A DNA stretch of 64,000 nt from a bacterium (lineage in GTDB: Bacteria; Patescibacteriota; Minisyncoccia; Phycocordibacterales; UBA5272). Positions within the stretch are counted from its first letter, which is position 1; each line of letters opens with the position of its first letter. The position numbers and the translations under genes are program-made. The stretch covers positions 5,077-69,076 of the forward strand of contig JAYUJP010000022.1 of assembly GCA_043765155.1 (NCBI GenBank), in the 5' to 3' direction. Shown here in pieces: positions 3,563 to 62,305 of this stretch. The notes under the pieces are model-generated. The model had not been told where the DNA came from. It made no database searches and saw only the letters and a program-made list of their open reading frames with translations.

Positions 3563-5389
3563 ATGGACCGCATCAGAAATTTCTCAATCATAGCCCATAT
3601 TGATCACGGTAAGTCCACACTTGCTGATAGGTTACTTGAGGTGACAGGGACCATCGACAAGCGTAACATGCAGGATCAGGTACTAGATAGCATGGAGCTA
3701 GAGAGGGAAAGAGGTATCACCATTAAGATGACTCCAGTTAGGCTAGACTATACTAATAAAAAGGGAGAAAAATATATTTATAATCTTATCGACACTCCGG
3801 GGCATATAGACTTTTCATATGAGGTATCGCGCTCACTGCGCGCTGTGGAGGGGGCGCTATTGCTAGTCGACTGTACTCAGGGTGTGCAGGCGCAGACTAT
3901 GACGGTGCTAGAGATGGCGCGTGAGGTAGGACTAACTATTATCCCAGTACTAAATAAAATAGATTCGCCACTTGCCAATATAACTGAGACCGAAGATGAG
4001 ATTATCAAGCTCTTAAAATGCGAACGTGCTGATATTATGCGTGTAAGCGGTAAGACTGGCGAGGGAGTCGCTAGCCTTCTTGAGGTTATAGCAGACAGGG
4101 TACCTGCTCCAAAAGAAGGAGGAGCTACTTCTCCTGAAAAAAATGAAAACAAAAACATAGCGAGCTCAGCTATTTCTAATAGGGGACTTATTTTCGACTT
4201 TGAATACTCTAATCATCAAGGAGTAATTATATATTTGCGTGTACTAGACGGGTCTATTAAAAAGGGTGACGAGTTAAAATTTATAGCTAGTGATTATAAT
4301 TTTGTAGTCCGCGAAGTAGGAACTTTTAAGCCTAAAAAAGTAGAATGTGACAAAATAAGTGAGGGTGAGGTGGGATACATTGTGACTGGTATTAAGGAGC
4401 CAGGAGTCGCACGCGTCGGAGATACTGTGACTATGAGGTCACGCCCTATGGAGGCATTTCCAGGTTATGCATCACCGCGCCCACTTGTGTTCGCATCTGT
4501 GTATCCAGAGTATCAAGAATATTTTGACGACCTACGCCGCGCTCTAGATCGCTTGCGTTTATCTGACTCGTCATTAACTTATGAAGAGGAGCAGTCAGGA
4601 GCTCTTGGTCGCGGATTTAGATGCGGATTCTTGGGAATGCTTCACATGGAAATAATTACAGAGAGATTAAGAAGAGAATTTGATTTAGAGCTGATAGTAA
4701 CTAGTCCGTCTATTACATATGAAGTCACCACGCGTGATGGTGTAACTGAAAAAGTGTATACTCCTATACATTTCCCAGATTTCGGTGAGGTTACAAAAGT
4801 CCGCGAGCCGTGGATACTCACTACCATTATAACCCCTCATGATTATGTCTCAAATATTATGGAGCTATGTCATGAGTATGAAGCGAGTGTATTTGAAATG
4901 GAGGACTGGGGTGATAATAGGGTCAAGATTATTTTGGATATGCCGCTGCGTGAGCTGATGCGTAATTTCTTTGATACTATAAAGTCAGCAAGTAGTGGTT
5001 ACGCCAGTGTCGCCTATGAGGGTAATGACATGCGCGACGCGCAGGTGACTCGTATGGATATATACATAGCCGAGGAGCGCGTAGCCGCATTTTCAAGAGT
5101 AATACCAGAACACAGGGTAGACAAAGACTGTGACGAGGCAGTAGAAAAACTTTTTAAAATACTTCCTAGTGAGTGGTTTAGAGTAAAAATCCAAGCCTAT
5201 GTAAAAGGGAGAATAATCGCAAGCCGTAGTAAGTCTGCGCTAAGTAAAGACGTAACTGGTCACCTGTACGGAGGAGACATTACCCGTAAAATGAAGCTAC
5301 GTGAGAAGCAAAAAGAAGGTAAAAAGCGTATGCAGGCTGAGGGTAAAGTTCATATTAGTCACGATACTTTTCTCAAGATGATGAGGTAA
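3563..5389 (+). CDS. lepA: Elongation factor 4 (LepA)
   Basis: MDRIRNFSIIAHIDHGKSTLADRLL, DTPGH and NKID GTPase motifs, plus the LepA-specific C-terminal domain. It carries a ~40-aa low-complexity insertion (PAPKEGGATSPEKNENKNIASSAISN). Confidence 0.95.
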   Translation: MDRIRNFSIIAHIDHGKSTLADRLLEVTGTIDKRNMQDQVLDSMELERERGITIKMTPVRLDYTNKKGEKYIYNLIDTPGHIDFSYEVSRSLRAVEGALLLVDCTQGVQAQTMTVLEMAREVGLTIIPVLNKIDSPLANITETEDEIIKLLKCERADIMRVSGKTGEGVASLLEVIADRVPAPKEGGATSPEKNENKNIASSAISNRGLIFDFEYSNHQGVIIYLRVLDGSIKKGDELKFIASDYNFVVREVGTFKPKKVECDKISEGEVGYIVTGIKEPGVARVGDTVTMRSRPMEAFPGYASPRPLVFASVYPEYQEYFDDLRRALDRLRLSDSSLTYEEEQSGALGRGFRCGFLGMLHMEIITERLRREFDLELIVTSPSITYEVTTRDGVTEKVYTPIHFPDFGEVTKVREPWILTTIITPHDYVSNIMELCHEYEASVFEMEDWGDNRVKIILDMPLRELMRNFFDTIKSASSGYASVAYEGNDMRDAQVTRMDIYIAEERVAAFSRVIPEHRVDKDCDEAVEKLFKILPSEWFRVKIQAYVKGRIIASRSKSALSKDVTGHLYGGDITRKMKLREKQKEGKKRMQAEGKVHISHDTFLKMMR

Positions 5390-5439
5390 AAAGATAGAGG
5401 GTACTATAAAAGTAAGTTCAATAAGTAGACTTTGCATAT

Positions 5440-5603
5440 TTTTACTTTTTATGTTATTATGTGTGCATACACCAAAGAAGTAGGTGCAAAAATCTTTTAG
5501 AAATTTGCGTAAACCCTGCGGAGGAGTATCAAAAGCAGTAATGCTATTTGGTATAAATCTAACAATCTTAAAAAGACTCTGGTGTAAGAGTCTTTTTATT
5601 TTA
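5440..5603 (+). promoter_or_regulatory. Putative rplJ (L10) leader / attenuator region
   Basis: A 230-nt untranslated gap before rplJ with higher GC than neighbouring spacers. It has a terminator-like hairpin AAAAGACTCT-GGTGTAA-AGAGTCTTTT plus T-run at 5571-5603, immediately before the rplJ start. Bacterial L10 leaders are known autoregulatory elements. Confidence 0.35.
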
Positions 5604-5622
5604 TCAAGCACATTAAACAAAT

Positions 5623-6111
5623 ATGGCATTAACAAAAGCAAAAAAAGTAGAGCTTATTGATGTTTACAGTGAGTCATTAAAGAACGCGCAGTCAGCTGTG
5701 TATGTATCTTTTAAGGGTCTCGGTGTAGCCAAGCAAGAGCAACTACGCAAAAAATTATTTGCTGAGAAAATGAATTATACAGTGGTAAAGAAATCACTCT
5801 GGAGTATCGCAGCAAAAGCTGCTGATATAAAAGGTGAGGCGCCAGCTGTAACGTCTGAGATGGCTGTACTGTGGGGTAATGACTTACTCGCACCAGCACG
5901 TATCGCAAATGAATTCGCAAAAGCAAATAAAAAAGCTATCGCTATACTAGGAGGAATTTTTGAAGGATCTTATAAAGATGCTGCAGAGATGATGACAATT
6001 GCAACTATCCCATCAAGAGAAGTTCTATTGTCACAGATCGCGTACTTGCTTAAGAGTCCAGTTCAGAGACTTGCTATTGGTATTGACGCTGTAGCACAGA
6101 AGAAAGCATAG
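5623..6111 (+). CDS. rplJ: 50S ribosomal protein L10
   Basis: MALTKAKKVELIDVY...VSFKGLGVAKQEQLRKKL matches the L10 N-terminus. It is followed by rplL. Confidence 0.9.
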   Translation: MALTKAKKVELIDVYSESLKNAQSAVYVSFKGLGVAKQEQLRKKLFAEKMNYTVVKKSLWSIAAKAADIKGEAPAVTSEMAVLWGNDLLAPARIANEFAKANKKAIAILGGIFEGSYKDAAEMMTIATIPSREVLLSQIAYLLKSPVQRLAIGIDAVAQKKA

Positions 6112-49885: not shown

Positions 49886-50803
49886 ATGTCAAATAAAACA
49901 GATCTAGAAATAAATGATACCAAAATCATAGAGTTCAGAATAATAGAAATAGAAAATGCTATGCAGACTGCAGAGTTTTGGCTTGATAAAGTGACTGCAA
50001 CTGAAATGATCAAGGAGCTCAAGATTTTGAAAAATAAATTATTGGGTGAGAAAGCTTTGGATCAAGGCGGCGCTATTATAAACATAATAGCTGGTGCTGG
50101 TGGTGACGATAGTGAAGACTGGGCCTATATACTTTTTGATATGTATAGTAAATATTTTGAAAAGAGAAGTAAAAATATTTCTGCTTGCAGTATAAGCATC
50201 TTACACTCACATTATAATGAACACAAGGGGATTAAAAATATTACTTTAGAAGTTACGGGTAAAAATATCTTTGGTGATCTTAAAAACGAATCTGGAGTGC
50301 ATAGGCTGGTGCGCATATCGCCATTTGACTCTAATTCAAAAAGGCATACTAGCTTTGCGATGGTAGAAGTTCTGCCTATTATTGATGACAGTATAGAGAT
50401 AAATATAAGACCTGAGGACATAGAGATAACAACGCAGCGTGCTGGTGGTCCTGGTGGGCAAAATGTAAACAAACGTGAGACTGCAGTGCGCATAGTGCAT
50501 AAGGCCACAGGCCTTAGCGTGCATATAAGTGACGAAAGGTCACAAGAAGCTAATCGTGAAAAAGCGATGCAGCTAATCAAGTCAAAATTATACGCTCTAG
50601 AGCAAGAGAAAATAAAAGCTGAAAAAGAAGGACGAAGCATAACCAAAACTACTGAAATAGAATGGGGTAATCAGATACGTAATTATGTATTGCATCCTTA
50701 TAAGCTAGTAAAAGATCTGCGTAGTAACTTTGAAACTAGTGATACAGAGGCTATATTATCTGGGGAAATACAAGAATTACTGGATGCAGAAAAGAGTATT
50801 TAA
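49886..50803 (+). CDS. prfB: Peptide chain release factor 2 (N-terminally short, no programmed frameshift)
   Basis: SPF tripeptide ([20 protein letters not shown]), GGQ ([21 protein letters not shown]) and the RF2-type domain 3-4. At 305 aa, domain 1 is about 60 aa shorter than E. coli RF2. All upstream frames are closed, so there is no +1 frameshift window. Confidence 0.85.
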
Positions 50804-50982: not shown

Positions 50983-53568
50983 ATGAAATACTCTAAAAAT
51001 TGGCTACAAGAATACATAAAAGAAAGTCTTCCGCAAGATAAGATAATAGAGGATGTTTTAAATGCCAAAGCTTTTGAAGTAGAAGGATTAGAGGTTATAA
51101 AATATTCTAAAATATCTAAAAATGGAGAGATAAAAGAAGTACAGGATACTATTTTTGATATAAAAGTTTTACCTAATCGCGCCCATGACGCACTGTGCCA
51201 CTTGGGTATGGCGCGTGAAGTTGCTGCTTGTCTTGACTTAACTTTTAAAAAAGAGGAGATAGATAAATATGAGAATCTTGATAATTTTAAAAGTATAAGC
51301 AAATTTGAATTTGATAATAATATAAAAAAAGTAAGTATAAAAATTCTAGAAGATAAATCTTGTACAAGATTTATGGCTACGCGTATTGACGGAATTGTCG
51401 TAGGAGAGAGTCCAGAGTGGCTCAAAAATAAATTAGAAGCAATAGGGCAGAGAAGTATTAATAACATAGTAGATATAACTAATTATGTGCAGTATACCCT
51501 CAACAAGCCGATGCACGCTTATGATGCTAATAATATTGCTGGCGGCTTACAAGCGAGATATGCTGCAGAAGGTGAAGTGTTGGTAACACTTGATGACAAG
51601 GAGTTAATTTTGAATCAAAGCGGCACAGAAAAAGTTTTGGTTATTAGTGATGATAAAAAAGCCTTAGGTCTAGCTGGTATTAAGGGTGGTAAATACTCAG
51701 GCGTTAACTCAGACACTACCAGTATGATATTAGAGAGCGCTAATTTTGATCCAGTTTTAATACGTAAAACTAGTCAAAAATATAACATTAAAACAGATGC
51801 TAGCAAAAGATTTGAGAATGGTATTGCTGATACCCTAGTCGAGTCAGGATTACACATGACAATAAGTGAGATCTTAAAGCTTTTCCCAGATGCAAAAGTT
51901 GGAGAGATTGGTGACACAAAATTAAGAGAATATAAAAATTATAAATCTGGGGTTACTTTAGATGATGCAAATAGTATATTAGGTTCTGACATATCAGAAC
52001 AAGAATTAGAGAATATTTTAAATAGACTTGGATTTGAATATGATAAAGTTAATACGACAGAAAAGTTGAAAGAGCTTATAAAAATAGCTATAGATAAGCC
52101 ATATAAAAGAGGGGCTAGTGTAATGTATGATGCGCCAGAAAGTTTTGACTGCTCATCACTCACTAATTATTTTTATAAAGAAAGTTATGGTCACATACCC
52201 AGAATATCAATAGATCAGTATGTATTTTCAAAAGCAATTAAAACAGAAGAAGCAAGATTTGGAGATTTGGTATTTACCAATACAAATATTATCAAGACAA
52301 AAGATAATAATATATTTTCACAGGTTCTAGGTAAAGTTGTAAATGATATAGGCACTAGAACAGAAAGTTTAGAATTTATGAAGGGTGCAAAAGTAGAGGG
52401 CGGCATAGATCATGTGGGATTTTATATAGGTAATAATCAAGTTTTGCATGCGAATAGTACTGATGGAAAAGTGGTATTAGAAGATATTGATGATTCAAAT
52501 GCTTTTAAGAATTCTAAATTGCTTAGAAGACCTTTTGAAAATATAAAAGATTTTAGTTATATAGTGAGCATACCTCACGAAAGACTAGACCTGCGTACAA
52601 AAGAGGACTTAATAGAAGAGGTTGGTAGAATATATGGTTATGAAAAATTAGTGCCTATTTTGCCAGATCTTAAAAATAAAATACAAGAAAATAAAATAGG
52701 ATTAATAAATAATAGATTGAATACTCAAAATATAATTAGAAACATTTTGAATAAATATGACTTTTCAGAGGTTATAACTTATAGCCTCACAGAAAAAGGT
52801 GATATAAAATTAGCTAAGTCAGCGAGTGACAAGACAAAGTTACGCATTAATATAAGTGATGGACTTTTAGAATCCCTTAATAAAAATCTTGGCAATATGC
52901 CACTACTTAATCTTGAGACTGTTAAAATGTATGAGATGGGTTCTGTATTTATATTGGGCAAAGATACAAATAAAATCACAGAACCTCTTAACCTTGCTAT
53001 CGCTATAGATGACGGCAAGAAGAAAAGTCATTTCCAAGAAGAGATTAAAAATATTTTATTAGAAATAGAAAAAAAGTTAAACTTAGAAAAAATAGATTTT
53101 GTAGTAAAAAGTGTTAAGCCTTATGTTATAGAAATAAGTCTAGATAACATAATAAATCAAATAGAAAATATAACAACAGGAGAAAATTTAGGAAATAACT
53201 TTTTAAGTCTAGATAATAAAAAAATAGAAAATATAAAATACAAATCATTTTCTCAAATGCCATTTGTTGTGCGTGATGTGGCATTTTGGTGTGATGTTAA
53301 TACTGACAAAATAGAAATATTAGGAGTGATAAAAGATAATGCTGGGGAATTGTGTGTTAGTGTTAATATATTTGATGAGTTCACAAAAGAAATAGAAATA
53401 AAAAAAGACTCACAAGAAAATAGCGTAACAGAAAAGAAAACTATGAAAAGTCTAGGTTATAGATTAGTCTATCAAGATAATATTAGAACACTCACTGATG
53501 AGGAAGTTAATACATACTCTGATAAAGTGTATGAAGTATTAAAAAATAAAGGATTTGAGATAAGGTAA
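50983..53568 (+). CDS. pheT: Phenylalanine--tRNA ligase beta subunit with an NlpC/P60 domain inserted in the B5 domain
   Basis: N-terminal tRNA-binding domain (MKYSKNWLQEYI...), B3/B4 (SPEWL...VDITNYV...PMHAYD), B5 halves (ILGSDISEQELENILNRLGFEY / RRPFENI..IPHERLDL..EDLIEEVGRIYGYE) and the C-terminal domain (FVVRDVAFW) are all present. Between the B5 halves sits a roughly 135-aa NlpC/P60 core (FDCSSL...GDLVF...HVGFYIGNNQVLHA). Confidence 0.9.
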   Translation: MKYSKNWLQEYIKESLPQDKIIEDVLNAKAFEVEGLEVIKYSKISKNGEIKEVQDTIFDIKVLPNRAHDALCHLGMAREVAACLDLTFKKEEIDKYENLDNFKSISKFEFDNNIKKVSIKILEDKSCTRFMATRIDGIVVGESPEWLKNKLEAIGQRSINNIVDITNYVQYTLNKPMHAYDANNIAGGLQARYAAEGEVLVTLDDKELILNQSGTEKVLVISDDKKALGLAGIKGGKYSGVNSDTTSMILESANFDPVLIRKTSQKYNIKTDASKRFENGIADTLVESGLHMTISEILKLFPDAKVGEIGDTKLREYKNYKSGVTLDDANSILGSDISEQELENILNRLGFEYDKVNTTEKLKELIKIAIDKPYKRGASVMYDAPESFDCSSLTNYFYKESYGHIPRISIDQYVFSKAIKTEEARFGDLVFTNTNIIKTKDNNIFSQVLGKVVNDIGTRTESLEFMKGAKVEGGIDHVGFYIGNNQVLHANSTDGKVVLEDIDDSNAFKNSKLLRRPFENIKDFSYIVSIPHERLDLRTKEDLIEEVGRIYGYEKLVPILPDLKNKIQENKIGLINNRLNTQNIIRNILNKYDFSEVITYSLTEKGDIKLAKSASDKTKLRINISDGLLESLNKNLGNMPLLNLETVKMYEMGSVFILGKDTNKITEPLNLAIAIDDGKKKSHFQEEIKNILLEIEKKLNLEKIDFVVKSVKPYVIEISLDNIINQIENITTGENLGNNFLSLDNKKIENIKYKSFSQMPFVVRDVAFWCDVNTDKIEILGVIKDNAGELCVSVNIFDEFTKEIEIKKDSQENSVTEKKTMKSLGYRLVYQDNIRTLTDEEVNTYSDKVYEVLKNKGFEIR

Positions 53569-53613: not shown

Positions 53614-54222
53614 TTAGGGGTCTGTCTTGTATTTTCCTTTTGAGTATATTATGGAGATATTTTTTGGTGTTGCTTCTAGCCCCTTAGCTCTACAATATTT
53701 TAGTATCGGTACATAATTTTTAGATGACATACCGATAAAAATAAAACTGTAAGAAATAAAAAGTTGCACATCTACACCTAGCCTCCTTGCTTTTTTAAGC
53801 TTAGTGTCTATATTCTCAAAAGATAATCCAAGTATAGCCGGTGACGAAGTGATCAACTTTTGCGGATCTTTAAATCCTCGCTCAATTAATCCTGCAATCT
53901 TAGTGTCTATATTCTCAAAAGATAATCCAAGTATAGCCGGTAACGAAGTGATCAACTTTTGCGGATCTTTAAATCCTCGCTCAAGTAATCCTGCAATCTT
54001 AGTGCCTATATTCTCAAAAGATAATCCAAGTATAGCCGGTAACGAAGTAATCAACTTTTGCGGATCTTTAAATCCTCGCTCAAGTAATCCTGCAATCTTC
54101 GTGCTTATTTCTGATGCTGGCCACAAAGCTGGCTTAAAAGGTGTCTGTTTGTCTACCCATACCTGACCAAACGTTTTTACATATGCCATTTTTCTAGCTT
54201 GGTGTTCATGGTTTGAAAGCAT
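53614..54222 (-). CDS. Tandem 33-aa helical-repeat protein, mTERF-like
   Basis: Three nearly identical repeats TKIAGLLERGFKDPQKLITSLPAILGLSFENIG, plus degenerate flanking repeats (KKARRLGVD...NYVPILKYCRAKGLEATPKNI), fit the L..G.s...i..lP.iL..s.e.i periodicity of mTERF motifs. Confidence 0.55.
   Translation of the reverse strand: MLSNHEHQARKMAYVKTFGQVWVDKQTPFKPALWPASEISTKIAGLLERGFKDPQKLITSLPAILGLSFENIGTKIAGLLERGFKDPQKLITSLPAILGLSFENIDTKIAGLIERGFKDPQKLITSSPAILGLSFENIDTKLKKARRLGVDVQLFISYSFIFIGMSSKNYVPILKYCRAKGLEATPKNISIIYSKGKYKTDP
53800..54096. repeat. 3 x 99-bp near-perfect direct tandem repeat (coding)
   Basis: Units 53800-53898, 53899-53997 and 53998-54096 differ by only 2-4 substitutions. 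Confidence 0.9.
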
Positions 54223-54327: not shown

Positions 54328-55638
54328 ATGTATATAAAATATAAAAAAATACATTTTATAGGAATTGGTGGTATAGGAATGTCAGCTCTTGCTAGATATT
54401 ATAAGTCTCAAGGTGTAATTATTAGCGGTAGTGACTCATCAGAAAGTGAGCTAATAGATAATCTTAGATCTGAGGGTATTATTGTAAATATTAGCGAAAG
54501 TTCTGATAATGTAGCGGATGACATAGACTTACTAGTCTATACTATTGCTATTAAGAGTGATAACGTGGAGCTATTAAAAGGTTTAGAACTAGCCAATAAT
54601 AATGAAAAGAGCTGTAGAGTGTTAACTTATCCACAAGCACTCGGAGAGATGTCACGTGAAAAAAAAGTGATAGCCGTATGTGGTACTCATGGCAAGACCA
54701 CAACTACGGCGATGGTATATAATGCCCTGCAAAATGCTGGATTAGATGTCTCTATGATACTTGGTTCACTAATTAAGGATAAAAATAGTGAAAACAAAAT
54801 GACTAATTATATACACGGCAATAGTGACTGGATAGTTATAGAAGCTTGTGAGTACAGGAGAAGCTTTTTAAATTATAATCCTGAGATAATATTAATTACT
54901 AATATCGATGCCGATCATCTAGATTATTATAAAGACATCGATGATATTGAAAATGCTTTTAGAGAGTTTATAGACAGGTTATCAGAAAACGGAAAAGTTA
55001 TAATACATAAAAACGAAGAGAATATTCTCGAAAAATTAGAAAAGAAAAAAGTTGTAAATAAGATTATTTGTGAAGATGTTATAAATCTAGAAGATGTAAA
55101 ATTAAGTGTACCAGGCGAGCATAATAGAAAAAATGCGCAGCTTGTTGTCGCTCTGGGTGATATGCTTAGTCTAAATAGAGAAAAAGTTTTAGAGGGCCTT
55201 AAAAATTTCGCTGGTACATGGAGAAGGCAAGAATATAAAGGTAAGCATTTTGATATGGAGTGTTATGATGATTATGCTCATCACCCATCAGAAATAAAAG
55301 CAACTTTGCAAGCCTTTAGAGAAAAATGTCCTGATAAGAAAATCATAGCTTGCTTTATGCCTCATCTTTATAGTAGAACCAAGATATTATTTGATGACTT
55401 TGTAAATAGCTTTGAAGATGCTGACGAAATTATACTATTGCCAATATACGCAGCGCGCGAGCAAGTAGATATTAGTATAAGTAGCGACATGTTAGCGCGT
55501 GAGCTTAATAACATAAATAAAAAGGCTGTATCACTTGCTAATATAAATACTTTGAAAGACTATTTAAAAATTCATAGTGACAAAGATAATGTAGTAGTAA
55601 CTATGGGTGCGGGAGATATTTATAAACTCTACGAATAA
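54328..55638 (+). CDS. murC: UDP-N-acetylmuramate--L-alanine ligase
   Basis: HFIGIGGIGMSALA N-terminus, GTHGKTTTT P-loop, and Mur ligase middle and C domains. Confidence 0.9.
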   Translation: MYIKYKKIHFIGIGGIGMSALARYYKSQGVIISGSDSSESELIDNLRSEGIIVNISESSDNVADDIDLLVYTIAIKSDNVELLKGLELANNNEKSCRVLTYPQALGEMSREKKVIAVCGTHGKTTTTAMVYNALQNAGLDVSMILGSLIKDKNSENKMTNYIHGNSDWIVIEACEYRRSFLNYNPEIILITNIDADHLDYYKDIDDIENAFREFIDRLSENGKVIIHKNEENILEKLEKKKVVNKIICEDVINLEDVKLSVPGEHNRKNAQLVVALGDMLSLNREKVLEGLKNFAGTWRRQEYKGKHFDMECYDDYAHHPSEIKATLQAFREKCPDKKIIACFMPHLYSRTKILFDDFVNSFEDADEIILLPIYAAREQVDISISSDMLARELNNINKKAVSLANINTLKDYLKIHSDKDNVVVTMGAGDIYKLYE

Positions 55639-55714: not shown

Positions 55715-57202
55715 ATGAAAGCCTACTTAATATACCCGCATCAATTATACAATCCAGATAGCATAAAAAATCTTTTACTTGAGAGCAATTTTGACTATAT
55801 TGTACTTGCTGAAGAGTTTTTATATTTTAAGCATTTTTATTTTCACCCTATCAAGGTAAAATTCCACATAGATACTATGCATGCTTATAAGTTAGAATTG
55901 GAAAAATTTTTAGAAAAAACAAAAATAAAAAATATTAAAATTATTTATATAAAATCAGAAGAGCTAGGTAGTACAGAAAAGCTGGCACAATTATTAAAAA
56001 ATGAGTACAAAATTAAAAATATAATCACTCATGACCCGACAGATGTATGGTTAACAAAACACATGTCTGCTGAGTGTAAAAAGTTAGATATAGAAATAGA
56101 GTATATGGACTCGCCTAATTTTATTTTCTCAAAAAAAGATATAGAAGACTTTTACGTTGTAAAAATAGGTGAGAAAAATAGTATCAAAAAAATGCTTATG
56201 AATACCTTTTATATACATTCTCGTAAGAAGTTAAATATTTTGATAGCTGGCGGAGAAGAGAAAATAGATTATAAAAACATGATGCCGATTGGAGGCAAGT
56301 GGAGCTATGATGTTGAAAATAGAAAAAGTATACCCAAGGGTATGGAGACGCCAGACGAGTCACATTTTAAATGGGCGACTACAAGAGCTGAAGCAGAAAA
56401 AGTAATGAATCAATTTTTCAAAACAAAATTTGCAATGTTTGGTGACTATGAGGATGCTATTGTGAGTGATAAAAATTTTCTTTATCATTCAACACTCTCT
56501 GCGTATATAAATGTGGGACTACTTGACCCAAAACAAGTTGTAAACGAGGCTCTAAAATTTTATGAGAATAGTAAAAAAGAAAACAAAAAAGATGAAGGTG
56601 AGATAAAATTAGCAACGATAGAAGGATTTGTAAGGCAGATTATCGGCTGGAGAGAGTATATGAGAATAGTTTATATTTTGAAAGGTGATGAGATCAGGAC
56701 TAAAAACTTTTTTAAATTTGACAAAAAATTACCTTATACTTTTTGGACAGCAACTACAGGTAACGATGTTATAGACAAGACAATAGCCAAAACTATTAAG
56801 TATGCCTATAATCACCACATAGAAAGACTTATGATACTGGGTAATTATATGTTACTCAAGGAATATAATCCAGATGATATATACAAGTGGTTCATGGAAA
56901 TGTATATAGATGCTTATGACTGGGTGATGGTGCCAAATGTATACAGTATGAGCCAATACGCTGACGGTGGTATTATAACTACTAAGCCGTACGTCTCAGG
57001 CAGCGCTTATGTAAAAAAGATGAGTGACTACAAAAGTAGTAGTAAAAAAGAAATAAAATCAGAAGGATGGGACACAGAGTGGGACAATTTATACTGGGAC
57101 TTTATTTATAAAAATAGAGAAAAGTTTAAAAATAATTTCCGTATGGCCATGATGGTTAATATGTCTATCAAAAGATTTGAGAAAAATAATATAAAAGAAT
57201 AA
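55715..57202 (+). CDS. Cryptochrome/photolyase-family protein of the FeS-BCP / (6-4) photolyase PhrB type, lacking the Fe-S cysteines
   Basis: Near-identical blocks to A. tumefaciens PhrB: GFVRQIIGWREYMRIVY, HHIERLMILGNYMLL, WFMEMYIDAYDWV, KPYVSGSAYVKKMSDY, and NLYWDFIYKNREK. The positions of the four PhrB [4Fe-4S] cysteines are not Cys here. Confidence 0.85.
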   Translation: MKAYLIYPHQLYNPDSIKNLLLESNFDYIVLAEEFLYFKHFYFHPIKVKFHIDTMHAYKLELEKFLEKTKIKNIKIIYIKSEELGSTEKLAQLLKNEYKIKNIITHDPTDVWLTKHMSAECKKLDIEIEYMDSPNFIFSKKDIEDFYVVKIGEKNSIKKMLMNTFYIHSRKKLNILIAGGEEKIDYKNMMPIGGKWSYDVENRKSIPKGMETPDESHFKWATTRAEAEKVMNQFFKTKFAMFGDYEDAIVSDKNFLYHSTLSAYINVGLLDPKQVVNEALKFYENSKKENKKDEGEIKLATIEGFVRQIIGWREYMRIVYILKGDEIRTKNFFKFDKKLPYTFWTATTGNDVIDKTIAKTIKYAYNHHIERLMILGNYMLLKEYNPDDIYKWFMEMYIDAYDWVMVPNVYSMSQYADGGIITTKPYVSGSAYVKKMSDYKSSSKKEIKSEGWDTEWDNLYWDFIYKNREKFKNNFRMAMMVNMSIKRFEKNNIKE

Positions 57203-57203
57203 C

Positions 57204-58544
57204 ATGCAAAAATTTGAAACAGATTATAACAAAATAATAGAGAGGATAAAAAATATAGATCCAGTCATTTATGCTAGGACCAGAAATAGCCTTGATGGTG
57301 ATGTGAGTTATATATCAAGATACCTCACTCATGGAGTTGTCAGTCTAAAATTAGTAAAAGATATTACCAATAAAATCTCTAATACAAATCTAGAAAATAA
57401 AAATTACTCTGATAATATAAAATATGAAAAATGGAATCAGGAGTTAGCTTGGCGGGAATATTTTCATAGGGTGTGGCAGTCACTCGGCGACGATATATTT
57501 TCTAGTATAAGACAGGATCAGAGTAACGTTAAGCATGCAAGTGGTATACCGATATCTTTTGCAAATCTTTCTTCTTATAGTAAAATAGAAGAAGTAAAAA
57601 AAGATAATAAAGAGAGTGGAAAAGAAAACTCAGAACTAGATAGTACTGGTGTAAAAAGCCTAGATAGAAATATAGAAAAACTAATAGAGACTGGTTATAT
57701 GCATAATCACGCCCGTATGTGGACTAGCATGCTAGCTACAAATATAGCCGGCTATGCTTGGAGTGATTGTAGCCGCTGGATGTATTATCACCTAATCGAT
57801 GGTGATCTGGCTAGTAATACCCTCAGCTGGCAGTGGATATGCTCTACATTTTCAGCAAAGCAGTATGTTGCTAATCAAGAGAATATAAATAAGTATGACA
57901 GGGACAATGCACAGCGTAAAACTTATCTGGACTGTGAATATGAGGACTTATATGACGCAGTATTACCAGAAAGCATGATAGCTAGTTTTGATATACAAAA
58001 ATATTTTGATGATGATTTTGAATTAGATACCCAAGCGTTAAATAAATACTCTATAGGAAATATTTTAAAAGATAAAAATAAGGAAGGAGAAAATGAAAAC
58101 AAAAAAGAAGAAAATAAATTAGAATTAGAGCAAGTGTTAAACTTTGAAAATAATTTTGATAAAAATAAAAATACTATAATATATAGCATGTGGAACCTGG
58201 ATCCGACTTGGTATGAGGATAAAGGTGACAATATAAACAGAATTTTATTTATAGAAAAGTCAGCATTAAAAGACTTTCCTATGAGCACCAAGCGTATAGA
58301 ATTTGTACTAGAAATTACTAAAAATATCTCAGATAAATATAAGAATTTTCAGATACTATACGGAGAAATTAACGAGTTAGAAGGTCTTGTTACAAAAGAT
58401 AAGCTTGATAACAGTATCTCACGTGAGTATCCGCTTTGTAATCACTGGGGTAACTTGGTAGAAGATAGAGAGTGGCTATATCCTAATTACTCTTGGAGTA
58501 GCGGCGGCTTTATGTCATTCTGGTCAAAAGTTAATGGGAGGTAA
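57204..58544 (+). CDS. Photolyase-family protein with permuted domain order (FAD-binding domain N-terminal, alpha/beta photolyase-like domain C-terminal)
   Basis: Residues 20-235 align with the photolyase FAD domain (YARTRNSLDGDVSYISRYLTHGVVS; LAWREYFHRVW; TGYMHNHARMWTSML...YHLIDGDLASNTLSWQW). The C-terminal 150 aa resemble the N-terminal alpha/beta domain (IIYSMWNLDP...ILFIEKSAL...MSTKRIEFVLEITKNISDKYKNFQILYGE). Confidence 0.65.
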   Translation: MQKFETDYNKIIERIKNIDPVIYARTRNSLDGDVSYISRYLTHGVVSLKLVKDITNKISNTNLENKNYSDNIKYEKWNQELAWREYFHRVWQSLGDDIFSSIRQDQSNVKHASGIPISFANLSSYSKIEEVKKDNKESGKENSELDSTGVKSLDRNIEKLIETGYMHNHARMWTSMLATNIAGYAWSDCSRWMYYHLIDGDLASNTLSWQWICSTFSAKQYVANQENINKYDRDNAQRKTYLDCEYEDLYDAVLPESMIASFDIQKYFDDDFELDTQALNKYSIGNILKDKNKEGENENKKEENKLELEQVLNFENNFDKNKNTIIYSMWNLDPTWYEDKGDNINRILFIEKSALKDFPMSTKRIEFVLEITKNISDKYKNFQILYGEINELEGLVTKDKLDNSISREYPLCNHWGNLVEDREWLYPNYSWSSGGFMSFWSKVNGR

Positions 58545-60084
58545 AAATATGAATACAAAATTAGAATACAAAAAATATTTTGAAGGTAAAAAAATAACTA
58601 AGCAGGGATTTGGTATACTCGGACGCGGTATTGGAGTTGTAAAGTTTTTGCTTGAAAGCGGAGCACAAGTACTTGTTACAGATACAAAGCCTGAATCAGA
58701 CTTCTTAGAAAATATAAAAGAGGTGACTAATTTTATGTTAGAAAAAAATATATCGAGCAGTAAAGTTTCGTATGTATTTGGCGAGCACAGAATGCAAGAT
58801 TTTGTAGAATGTGACTATGTGGTGCAGGCTAGTGGCGTGCCAAAAGATAATATATATTTAAAACATGCGCGTGATAATAATGTAAAAGTTTATCAAGAGA
58901 GTAGCCTTTTTTGTGAGATTATAAGAGAATACAACAAAAACATATTTGAAGAAATTTCAAAAGAAAATAAAATAAGCATAATAGGAATCACGGGTACAAG
59001 AGGTAAGACTACAACAACATTTTTGATAAAGAAAATAATAGAAGATTGTATAAATAACGAGAATAGAAGTAAAGAAATTTCTGAAAGTATTAACTTAGAC
59101 AATTTTGACTTAGAAAAAAATAGAGGAAATACCAGAAAAGTATATTTTGGTGGTAATGTACAAGGAGTAGCAACCCTTGAGAATTTAAAATATATAAAAA
59201 GCGGTGATGTGATTGTGATGGAGCTGGACTCCTGGATATTACAGGGGTTCAGAGATATAAATTATAGTCCAGAGATAGCAGTATTTACTACTTTTATGGC
59301 TGATCACATGAATTATTATAAGGGCGATATGCAAGATTATTTTCTAGATAAAGCTAATATATTTCTGTGTCAAAATTTTGATGACATATTCATAACTACT
59401 GATAAAATAGAGGCAGATATAAAAAAGTATTTAAAAATAGAAGAGTATGAGAATATAAAATATAATAAAATATTTTTAAGTGACAAAGAGATCTGTGGAA
59501 TTAAAAATAACTTTACTAGTAAGCTAATAGGAGCGCACAATGACGTTAATGTTGCTCTTGCCATTAGTGCTTGTAAAGTATTTGGTGTTGACGATATTAG
59601 TATACAAAAATCTCTTGAAAGCTTCACGGGCGTAGCAGGGAGATTAGAATTTTTAAAAGAATTAGATGGAGTTAAATATTACAATGACACGACCTCAACA
59701 ACACCGGACTCTCTTATAGTTGCTTTAGAATCTTTTAAAAATGAAAATATAATTTTAATTTGTGGTGGTAGGGATAAAGAGCTAGATATGACACTTGCCG
59801 CAGAAAAAATAATTAATTTTAAAAATGAAAACAAAATAAAGCAGATAATATTACTGAGTGACGATACTACTACGGGGACAAAAAAGCTGATAGAGCTATT
59901 TAGCCCCCTCCATTTTGAAGATTATTTGGAGTGCGAGAATCTAGAAGTTGCAGTACAGGCCGCGCGAAGCGCGGCCACAAGTGGCGACATAATCCTATTC
60001 TCGCCAGGCTTTGCATCTTTTGGTATGTTCCAAAATGAATACGACAGAGGAGATAAATTTAATCAAATGGTAAATAGTTTGTAG
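58534..60084 (+). CDS. murD: UDP-N-acetylmuramoylalanine--D-glutamate ligase
   Basis: N-terminal Rossmann GFGILGRGIGVVKFLLESGAQVLVTD, P-loop GITGTRGKTTTT, and a Mur ligase C domain. The true start may be the ATG at 58549. Confidence 0.85.
   Translation: MGGKNMNTKLEYKKYFEGKKITKQGFGILGRGIGVVKFLLESGAQVLVTDTKPESDFLENIKEVTNFMLEKNISSSKVSYVFGEHRMQDFVECDYVVQASGVPKDNIYLKHARDNNVKVYQESSLFCEIIREYNKNIFEEISKENKISIIGITGTRGKTTTTFLIKKIIEDCINNENRSKEISESINLDNFDLEKNRGNTRKVYFGGNVQGVATLENLKYIKSGDVIVMELDSWILQGFRDINYSPEIAVFTTFMADHMNYYKGDMQDYFLDKANIFLCQNFDDIFITTDKIEADIKKYLKIEEYENIKYNKIFLSDKEICGIKNNFTSKLIGAHNDVNVALAISACKVFGVDDISIQKSLESFTGVAGRLEFLKELDGVKYYNDTTSTTPDSLIVALESFKNENIILICGGRDKELDMTLAAEKIINFKNENKIKQIILLSDDTTTGTKKLIELFSPLHFEDYLECENLEVAVQAARSAATSGDIILFSPGFASFGMFQNEYDRGDKFNQMVNSL

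Positions 60085-60214: not shown

Positions 60215-62305
<2,091 letters not shown>

Follow-up and report, generated by a model that had tools for sequence, protein, structure and literature searches.

Aminoacyl-tRNA synthetases are among the most conserved of proteins, and the domains they have acquired usually serve tRNA binding or editing. Hydrolases nested in a synthetase loop include CP1 of the class I enzymes LeuRS, IleRS and ValRS, INS of ProRS, and the B3/4 domain of PheT, the beta subunit of phenylalanyl-tRNA synthetase (PheRS). Here we describe a PheT that also contains a complete peptidase of a cell-wall-hydrolase family, NlpC/P60 (C40), an arrangement found across a large group of ultra-small, host-dependent bacteria. 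The protein is encoded in a 64,000-nt stretch of DNA from the Patescibacteriota lineage UBA5272 (contig JAYUJP010000022.1, positions 5,077-69,076, forward strand), hereafter the window. CP1, INS and B3/4 act on the mischarged tRNA of their own enzyme and are not papain-like, whereas here B3/4 is intact and the papain-like insert is conserved after excision from the synthetase. A papain-like amidase of the NlpC/P60-CHAP superfamily and an ATP-dependent ligase within one cytoplasmic polypeptide have a precedent in the bifunctional glutathionylspermidine synthetase/amidase of E. coli (Gsp) and in trypanothione synthetase; in Gsp, however, the CHAP domain is a terminal fusion and acts on the ligase's own product.

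The NlpC/P60 DL-endopeptidases compared with the domain (C. difficile Acd24020, structure 7cfl; E. coli MepS/Spr; B. subtilis CwlO and LytE; M. tuberculosis RipB) do their work on the wall, as secreted or lipid-anchored proteins, whereas the window domain has no signal peptide and lies inside a cytoplasmic tRNA synthetase. Unlike them, it has a beta-hairpin extension of 20-40 residues before the catalytic His, and the usual PYxxGG...GFDCSG motif reads YK(N/R)xxS...DAPxxF(S/D)CSS in the PheT-nested family. YkfC is the type of the cytoplasmic gamma-D-Glu-diamino-acid endopeptidases that serve the recycling of murein peptides. In YkfC, two N-terminal SH3b domains select the free L-Ala end, and the enzyme is encoded together with an L-Ala-D/L-Glu epimerase and an LD-carboxypeptidase; we take the B. 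cereus structure 3h41, titled 'NLP/P60 family protein (BCE_2878)', to be its ortholog. By analogy the nested domain would work most like a YkfC-type endopeptidase, yet it is not YkfC, since it lacks SH3b domains and is paired differently: here we find a B5 scaffold and a partner of the Peptidase_C39_2 family (C39_2).

Our literature searches returned no description of an NlpC/P60 domain in PheT, in agreement with a first-pass annotation of the window that knew of no peptidase domain there, and none of an NlpC/P60-C39_2 gene pair or, for Patescibacteria, of a monomeric PheRS or of peptidoglycan recycling. In a comprehensive 2023 classification of papain-like enzymes, no tRNA-synthetase context is given; the term 'tRNA' occurs four times, and the occurrences shown lie in the reference list. 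Many copies are already in the databases, where their naming is inconsistent ('C40 family peptidase', 'PheT-related protein', 'lipoprotein Spr'). What is new here is the stand-alone module, its fusion to C39_2, the adjacency to C39_2, and the decay of B5 around an intact catalytic triad in the excised forms.

The NlpC/P60 domain in the B5 hairpin of PheT

The pheT gene of the window is a single open reading frame (ORF) with zero stops and zero frameshifts across 861 codons, and its B5 domain is split by an NlpC/P60 papain-like domain, as the first-pass annotation had proposed. The profile PF00877 scores 56.6 bits on the whole protein (in two stretches) and 61.4 bits on the insert alone, against a gathering score of 23; NCBIfam NlpC/P60 models match PheT at E-values of 1e-9 to 1e-11, and the insert matches 7cfl_A at 2e-14 with phmmer. 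The AlphaFold2 (AF2) models have a mean predicted local distance difference test (pLDDT) score of 86 for whole PheT, with 87-96 over most of the insert, and of 89.9 for the insert modelled alone. The whole-protein model places the insert between B5 strands 352-357 and 524-530, i.e. in the B5 hairpin, as a separate domain on B5 with a papain-like alpha+beta fold. By Foldseek, the whole-protein model matches bacterial PheRS beta chains (E-values of 1e-45 to 1e-49); NlpC/P60 structures form a separate set of matches. Within B5 there is thus an intact NlpC/P60 papain-like domain that, judging from the models, folds independently.

Its in-frame limits, set by the gaps in insert-less relatives, are 52042-52548. 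The limits first given, 52043-52523, started one base out of frame and ended about 8 residues too early, leaving out the conserved Arg516 of the NlpC/P60 fold. At the insertion site the insert-less relatives have 7 residues in the alignment, not the 10 or so previously supposed for normal bacteria, and the insert is 169 residues long here against about 150 in most homologs. The gene and its parts are as follows.

50983..53568, + strand: pheT, PheRS beta subunit, 861 residues, single ORF, without B2 and with the nested peptidase inside
51361..51882, + strand: B3/4 editing domain, residues 127-300 (Pfam B3_4, 184 bits)
51934..52041, + strand: N-terminal half of B5, residues ~318-353 (beta1, two helices, beta2; first stretch of the Pfam B5 match)
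52042..52548, + strand: NlpC/P60 (C40) papain-like domain in the B5 beta-hairpin, residues 354-522
52150..52152, + strand: catalytic Cys390 (TGC), in the motif FDCSSL, at the start of helix 390-401
52282..52392, + strand: family-specific beta-hairpin extension between GDLVF and the catalytic His, residues 434-470 (alignment to 7cfl_A)
52411..52413, + strand: catalytic His477, within HVGFYIGNNQVLHA
52447..52449, + strand: third triad residue His489, within HVGFYIGNNQVLHA
52549..52650, + strand: C-terminal half of B5, residues 523-556 (beta3 and helix; Pfam B5 stretch 521-553)
52708..53121, + strand: B6/7 catalytic-like module, residues 576-713 (PF17759, tRNA_synthFbeta, 40.3 bits)
53251..53565, + strand: FDX-ACB (B8) anticodon-binding domain, residues 757-861 (PF03147, 62.3 bits)

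The motifs FDCSSL, GDLVF and HVGFYIGNNQVLHA are all present as the first-pass annotation described them. The triad has the non-permuted order Cys-His-His, with His477 and His489 on adjacent strands. Cys390 is kept in 220 of 223 copies embedded in PheT, in all 46 stand-alone copies and in all 16 copies fused to C39_2 (both forms are described below); the corresponding figures for His477 are 219, 46 and 16, and for His489 218, 44 (the other two have Gln) and 16. In NlpC/P60 enzymes a GD motif on strand 1 pairs with an Arg on strand 5 (PMC10318531), and the PheT-embedded copies follow this rule: G427 and D428, which belong to GDLVF, are present in 219 and 223 of the 223 copies, and R516 in 202. 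Because the triad is under strong purifying selection, the nested domain is probably catalytically active, and the retention of about 98% in the 223 copies supports the competence that had been read from the Cys-His-His triad. The extension before His477 replaces about 5 residues of canonical NlpC/P60 proteins and is modelled with lower pLDDT (74-79); an extra piece of 19 residues within it (436-454) is limited to the sub-lineage of the window, 105 of 121 aligned sequences having a gap there.

The synthetase that surrounds the insert is readily recognized. Pfam detects B3_4, B5, tRNA_synthFbeta and FDX-ACB above their gathering scores and in canonical order, and the N-terminal half of B5 is modelled with strands 320-325 and 352-357 and helices 326-333 and 339-348. 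In its C-terminal half the PheT-invariant residues R534, D536, E545, E546, R549 and G552 are each conserved in at least 97% of the 223 PheT. The earlier description of PheT as full length and collinear therefore holds for B3/4, B5, B6/7 and FDX-ACB, but not for B2: alignment to E. coli PheT shows that this tRNA-binding domain of oligonucleotide/oligosaccharide-binding (OB) fold, roughly E. coli residues 40-150, is absent, the N-terminus here corresponding to 50983-51240. B2 is missing from every Patescibacteria PheT aligned, insert-bearing or insert-less, and its absence has been reported for many bacteria of the Candidate Phyla Radiation (CPR) (PMC5370408). Alongside several NlpC/P60 endopeptidase models, NCBIfam matches the protein to pheT_bact (TIGR00472) with 357.3 bits, below the equivalog cut-off of 402.65. 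Since the low score and the missing B2 are shared with insert-less Patescibacteria PheT, they reflect a reduction in the lineage rather than a different protein. The idea that the insert compensates for B2 was rejected, as insert-less relatives lack B2 too.

The survey of orthologs confirmed that the arrangement is widespread. The 120 best homologs, drawn from NCBI, JGI, ENA and Logan, are 42-95% identical to the window protein, and 115 of them combine PF00877 with the PheT domains; the five others, of 633-638 residues, are insert-less. They carry source names such as Candidatus Nomurabacteria, Paceibacterota and 'Patescibacteria group', and the 95%-identical protein, with the same architecture, was assembled independently in ENA. 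When 1.8 billion cluster representatives were searched with just the insert, 194 proteins matched at E <= 1e-10, most of them 770-840 residues long and matched at around residues 330-500. Mean pairwise identity is 57% for the insert, compared with 56% for B6/7 and 55% for FDX-ACB, and the GC content across the insert, 0.29-0.31, equals that of its flanks. In a scan of species-representative genomes, 14 of the best 80 loci kept have an insert-bearing pheT. Insert-less lineages (L014/P0053, L016, L017-L019 and L020) are nested inside insert-bearing clades in a neighbour-joining tree of the synthetase part, which argues for clean secondary losses. On these comparisons, the nested peptidase is an old, conserved feature of one Patescibacteria group. 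A mobile-element or intein-like insertion was also considered and rejected: the flanking repeats are short and due to chance, and there is no compositional shift.

One of the proteins found in the insert search, outside the window, is of a different kind. P0121 (1183 residues) has a hydrophobic, signal-like N-terminal stretch and is built of some ten NlpC/P60 domains in tandem; most of them have another residue in place of the catalytic Cys (GFNGSGF, GFNISGF, GLSSYGF), and one near the C-terminus keeps FDCSSF.

Forms outside PheT and the C39_2 partner

The B5-nested domain also exists outside PheT. A stand-alone B5+NlpC/P60 gene is represented by 46 clusters of about 220 residues (range 199-241); the proteins have a Met at the start of B5, continue through NlpC/P60 and end shortly past a degenerate second half of B5. 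Inspection of the contigs shows that these are real genes, with starts and stops of their own and with intergenic regions or convergent neighbours around them. Another 16 clusters, of 391-399 residues, have B5-NlpC/P60 fused to Peptidase_C39_2. The residues E545, E546, R549 and G552, so constant in PheT, are found in 0, 18, 0 and 0 of the 46 stand-alone forms and are mostly deleted in the fusions. Both forms are nested within the PheT-embedded diversity, in at least five places of a rough domain tree, and there is no PheRS gene near the fused genes or near one of the stand-alone genes. These PheRS-free loci, together with the decay of B5 around a preserved triad, indicate that the peptidase is what selection maintains, rather than any role of B5 related to PheRS. 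The comparative data thus indicate an independent enzyme for which the synthetase is the carrier. No free-standing copy of the domain was found elsewhere in the 64-kb window.

The recurrent neighbour of the domain is a small C39_2 gene. A profile hidden Markov model (HMM) was built from the small gene that follows the stand-alone module and was run on the pheT loci and on all ORFs of the window. C39_2 lies directly downstream of insert-bearing pheT in seven loci (L002, L003, L006, L007, L008, L013 and L091) and 1.5 kb downstream in L010, i.e. in 8 of 15 informative insert-bearing loci against none of about 62 insert-less ones (Fisher p = 3e-7, a test that ignores phylogeny). It is also downstream of the stand-alone module in five of eight loci (L082, L086, L087, L088 and the P0258 contig). 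The most complete picture is given by L091, a 514-kb Nomurabacteria contig with the order rpsB-tsf-...-GT2-pheS-(IVP)-pheT[NlpC/P60]-C39_2-murC-murD-like-gyrB, where IVP is an intervening-sequence protein gene; pheS is just upstream of pheT, and overlapping stop and start codons run from pheT through the second Mur ligase. Loci that have lost the insert also lack C39_2, and in them murC directly adjoins pheT. Taken together, adjacency, joint loss and natural fusion strongly support a functional link between NlpC/P60 and C39_2. They define a new module of two enzymes, and the three architectures offer three ready constructs for biochemistry.

The C39_2 partners score 30-54 bits with Pfam PF13529 (cut-off 24), keep their own Cys and His, and share the motifs vPYxSQ...W..RaCG...GW.H...H(l/v)..G...hDPe...W. 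They are 156-204 residues long (e.g. L082 9509-10087, L088 10593-11159, L091 8405-8917), without a signal peptide by inspection. Weak Pfam matches were obtained to BtrH_N (E 0.015) and to the C-terminal domain of actin maturation protease (E 0.077), and a PDB sequence search with the partner returned no homolog. PF13529 is listed as a peptidase domain of 260 phage lytic proteins (PMC8310338). From its sequence, the partner looks like an uncharacterised cytoplasmic branch of PF13529. In the 64-kb window itself the HMM search of all ORFs found no C39_2, so the gene pair is absent here; tblastn for C39_2 pseudogene remnants between pheT and murC, in the insert-less lineages and in the window, gave only chance matches (E > 0.4).

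Beside the stand-alone gene, some Paceibacteria encode a single-chain PheS::FDX-ACB protein of 382-389 residues, with the architecture of mitochondrial-type PheRS (L082 7655-8803; L083 8312-9481, - strand; L084 2409-3578, - strand). It occupies the pheS slot of the order rpsB-tsf-GT2-pheS...gyrB and scores just below the NCBIfam cut-offs for 'SrmL mystery ligase' and pheS_mito. An origin in situ from the local pheS is unsupported, identity being 28-31% to the PheS of L091 and 34-36% to E. coli PheS. Such proteins may represent a bacterial monomeric PheRS without an editing domain.

Possible functions of the nested peptidase

We consider it likely that the nested domain is active as a peptidase, does not depend on aminoacylation and has C39_2 as its partner. 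The fuller explanation, that PheT carries an active cytoplasmic C40 peptidase which, with its C39_2 partner, cuts peptidoglycan stem peptides stepwise for salvage or turnover, is offered tentatively, as a plausible scheme that stops a little short of probable. According to this scheme, a canonical, non-permuted NlpC/P60 domain would have entered the B5 beta-hairpin of PheT in the ancestor of a large Paceibacteria group and would have been kept active since. As the modelled peptidase forms a globule of its own, with both termini coming together at the hairpin, the synthetase domains would be left intact, PheT acting as a carrier and the peptidase performing a job independent of aminoacylation. 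Its functional partner would be the small cytoplasmic C39_2 cysteine peptidase. In the presumed ancestral arrangement the gene of this partner comes straight after pheT, the stop and start codons overlapping, and precedes murC, a murD-like gene and gyrB. One cytoplasmic peptide would then be cut by both papain-like enzymes, one after the other.

A peptidoglycan stem peptide, taken up or turned over, would be the most plausible substrate because the NlpC/P60 relatives are gamma-D-glutamyl-diamino-acid endopeptidases and C39_2 is catalogued in phage lytic proteins; the nearest neighbours of the domain, in sequence and in structure, are all peptidoglycan DL-endopeptidases. No signal-peptide-like hydrophobic stretch was seen by inspection at the N-terminus of any form, and Pfam found no SH3b or LysM domain in the window PheT or in the stand-alone proteins. 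In the absence of a signal peptide, any cell-wall-related substrate would be a cytoplasmic peptide: moonlighting on the cell wall was the closest of the three guesses in the first-pass annotation, but the substrate would be such a peptide rather than the wall. CPR bacteria have little biosynthesis, and the freed amino acids would be available to an organism of very limited biosynthetic capacity. If the substrate is indeed a peptidoglycan peptide, this would constitute a cytoplasmic salvage route and would help to explain how the Mur ligases are supplied in Patescibacteria with minimal biosynthesis. The arrangement will surprise specialists of aminoacyl-tRNA synthetases and is directly testable, even though its most probable function is ordinary peptide hydrolysis.

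Several points weigh against this scheme. A cytoplasmic DL-endopeptidase could attack the cell's own UDP-MurNAc-peptide precursors, and no gating mechanism is evident. The YkfC-like enzymes that act on murein peptides in the cytoplasm use SH3b domains and other operon partners, neither of which is seen here. The window and its relative L089 (~52-55% identity) keep an intact triad without an adjacent C39_2, so that the pairing is either not obligatory or not always locally encoded. The presence of murC and murD beside pheT reflects the synteny of the lineage, since they also accompany insert-less pheT; the murC adjacency was accordingly rejected as specific evidence, murC following insert-less pheT in L014 and L016-L019. 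The excised forms always keep the B5 half-domains, and four of them still adjoin a PheRS-like gene, which could mark a remaining link to PheRS or tRNA. Finally, the trees of the synthetase part and of the domain are rough neighbour-joining trees.

A first alternative concerns the substrate. The peptidase pair may instead cut another cytoplasmic amide or isopeptide, such as a gamma-glutamyl compound or a protein peptide tag, or take part in N-terminal processing, with PheT still as the carrier. We regard this as rather unlikely, though deserving of attention: the evidence for independence from PheRS and for coupling to C39_2 is silent on the substrate, the weak matches of the partner are to the non-cell-wall BtrH_N and actin maturation protease, and signal peptides, SH3b and LysM domains are lacking. 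However, the closest NlpC/P60 neighbours are without exception peptidoglycan DL-endopeptidases, PF13529 is catalogued in phage lytic proteins, and at the inspected loci no candidate ligase or tagging gene recurs beside the pair.

A second alternative is that the domain acts on the products of PheRS itself; the first-pass annotation had envisaged action on tRNA or peptidyl-tRNA. The domain might hydrolyse mischarged, D-aminoacyl, N-acyl or peptidyl-tRNAPhe, serving as another editing or rescue site, or transfer Phe from tRNA to an acceptor through a Cys390 thioester. In more than 200 protein clusters, after all, it is physically part of PheRS; stand-alone copies retain the B5 halves, and four adjoin the single-chain PheS::FDX-ACB gene, which has no B3/4. 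Moreover, papain-like Cys enzymes are able to hydrolyse esters, and LRAT and BtrH are acyltransferases. Nevertheless, this role is improbable. The editing-site residues of E. coli PheT, R244, N254, H265, G318, E334, T354 and A356, are all identical in the aligned window PheT, where H178, E251, T271 and A273 correspond to H265, E334, T354 and A356. With all seven intact, the insert does not replace a lost editing site, and that proposal was rejected. The insert has also been cleanly lost in several lineages, the fused and some stand-alone copies lie at loci without a nearby PheRS gene, the PheT-specific B5 residues decay after excision, and the constant partner is C39_2 rather than PheRS. Still more doubtful is a new tRNA-linked activity of the NlpC/P60-C39_2 pair in PheRS, whether a second, thiol-based site that edits or rescues aberrant aminoacyl-, N-acyl- or peptidyl-tRNAPhe, or an aminoacyl-transferase. 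The transferase variant, in which Phe would leave the tRNA via the Cys390 thioester and be attached to a protein or a peptidoglycan precursor, falls under the same slim estimate, as does the corollary that the B5 halves retained by the stand-alone forms, several of them neighbours of the single-chain PheRS-like gene that has no editing domain, would dock the enzyme on PheRS or tRNA in trans.

A purely binding or regulatory role without catalysis, for instance as a muropeptide sensor or a docking surface on PheRS, is very unlikely. Inactive NlpC/P60 proteins do exist (RipD is among the NCBIfam matches), and the Cys is missing in 3 of the 223 PheT-embedded copies; the Cys and the two His are nevertheless each kept at ~98-100% in 285 copies that span three architectures and about 45% divergence, and the GD motif and the Arg are kept as well. 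Finally, a chimeric assembly, a join across a frameshift or a recent functionless selfish insertion is a negligible possibility, with no evidence found in its favour, and the artefact against which the first-pass annotation cautioned is excluded as far as sequence data can do so, given the single unbroken ORF, the 95%-identical protein in an independent assembly, more than 100 diverged homologs in independent NCBI, JGI, ENA and Logan assemblies, a composition equal to that of the flanks, the lack of meaningful flanking repeats, and a conservation equal to that of the synthetase domains.

Neighbouring genes

The order pheT-(C39_2)-murC-murD-gyrB is conserved in the window, in L091/L092 and in other loci. 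Downstream of pheT the window contains the following genes.

53614..54222, - strand: mTERF-like repeat ORF of 202 residues, at the position of C39_2 in relatives (Pfam mTERF, 28.4 bits; cut-off 23.1)
54328..55638, + strand: murC (Pfam)
58534-60084: murD-like gene (Pfam)
60233-62305: gyrB (Pfam)

The mTERF-like ORF consists of three tandem repeats of about 31 residues (KIAGLLERGFKDPQKLITSLPAILGLSFENI), belongs to a family mainly known from organelles, and has a homolog in L041 at 5374-5754 (tblastn). Two photolyase-related genes (DPRP, PF04244; FAD_binding_7) lie at 55715-58544 (+ strand) between murC and the murD-like ligase, unlike the situation in L091, where one ligase gene directly follows the other and their stop and start codons overlap.

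Upstream of pheT, the Nomurabacteria relative has a gene for a 23S rRNA intervening-sequence protein (PF05635) between pheS and pheT (L091 5605-5961, L092 86-442). No pheS was recognised by eye among seven window ORFs of 314-402 residues, the window not having been searched systematically for it. The ORF at 49886-50803 (+ strand) is a release factor with PCRF and RF-1 domains, but has only 305 residues, and its PCRF match begins at profile position 73. Its sequence suggests either a short N-terminus or an RF2 that relies on a programmed frameshift and would have its beginning encoded in another frame.

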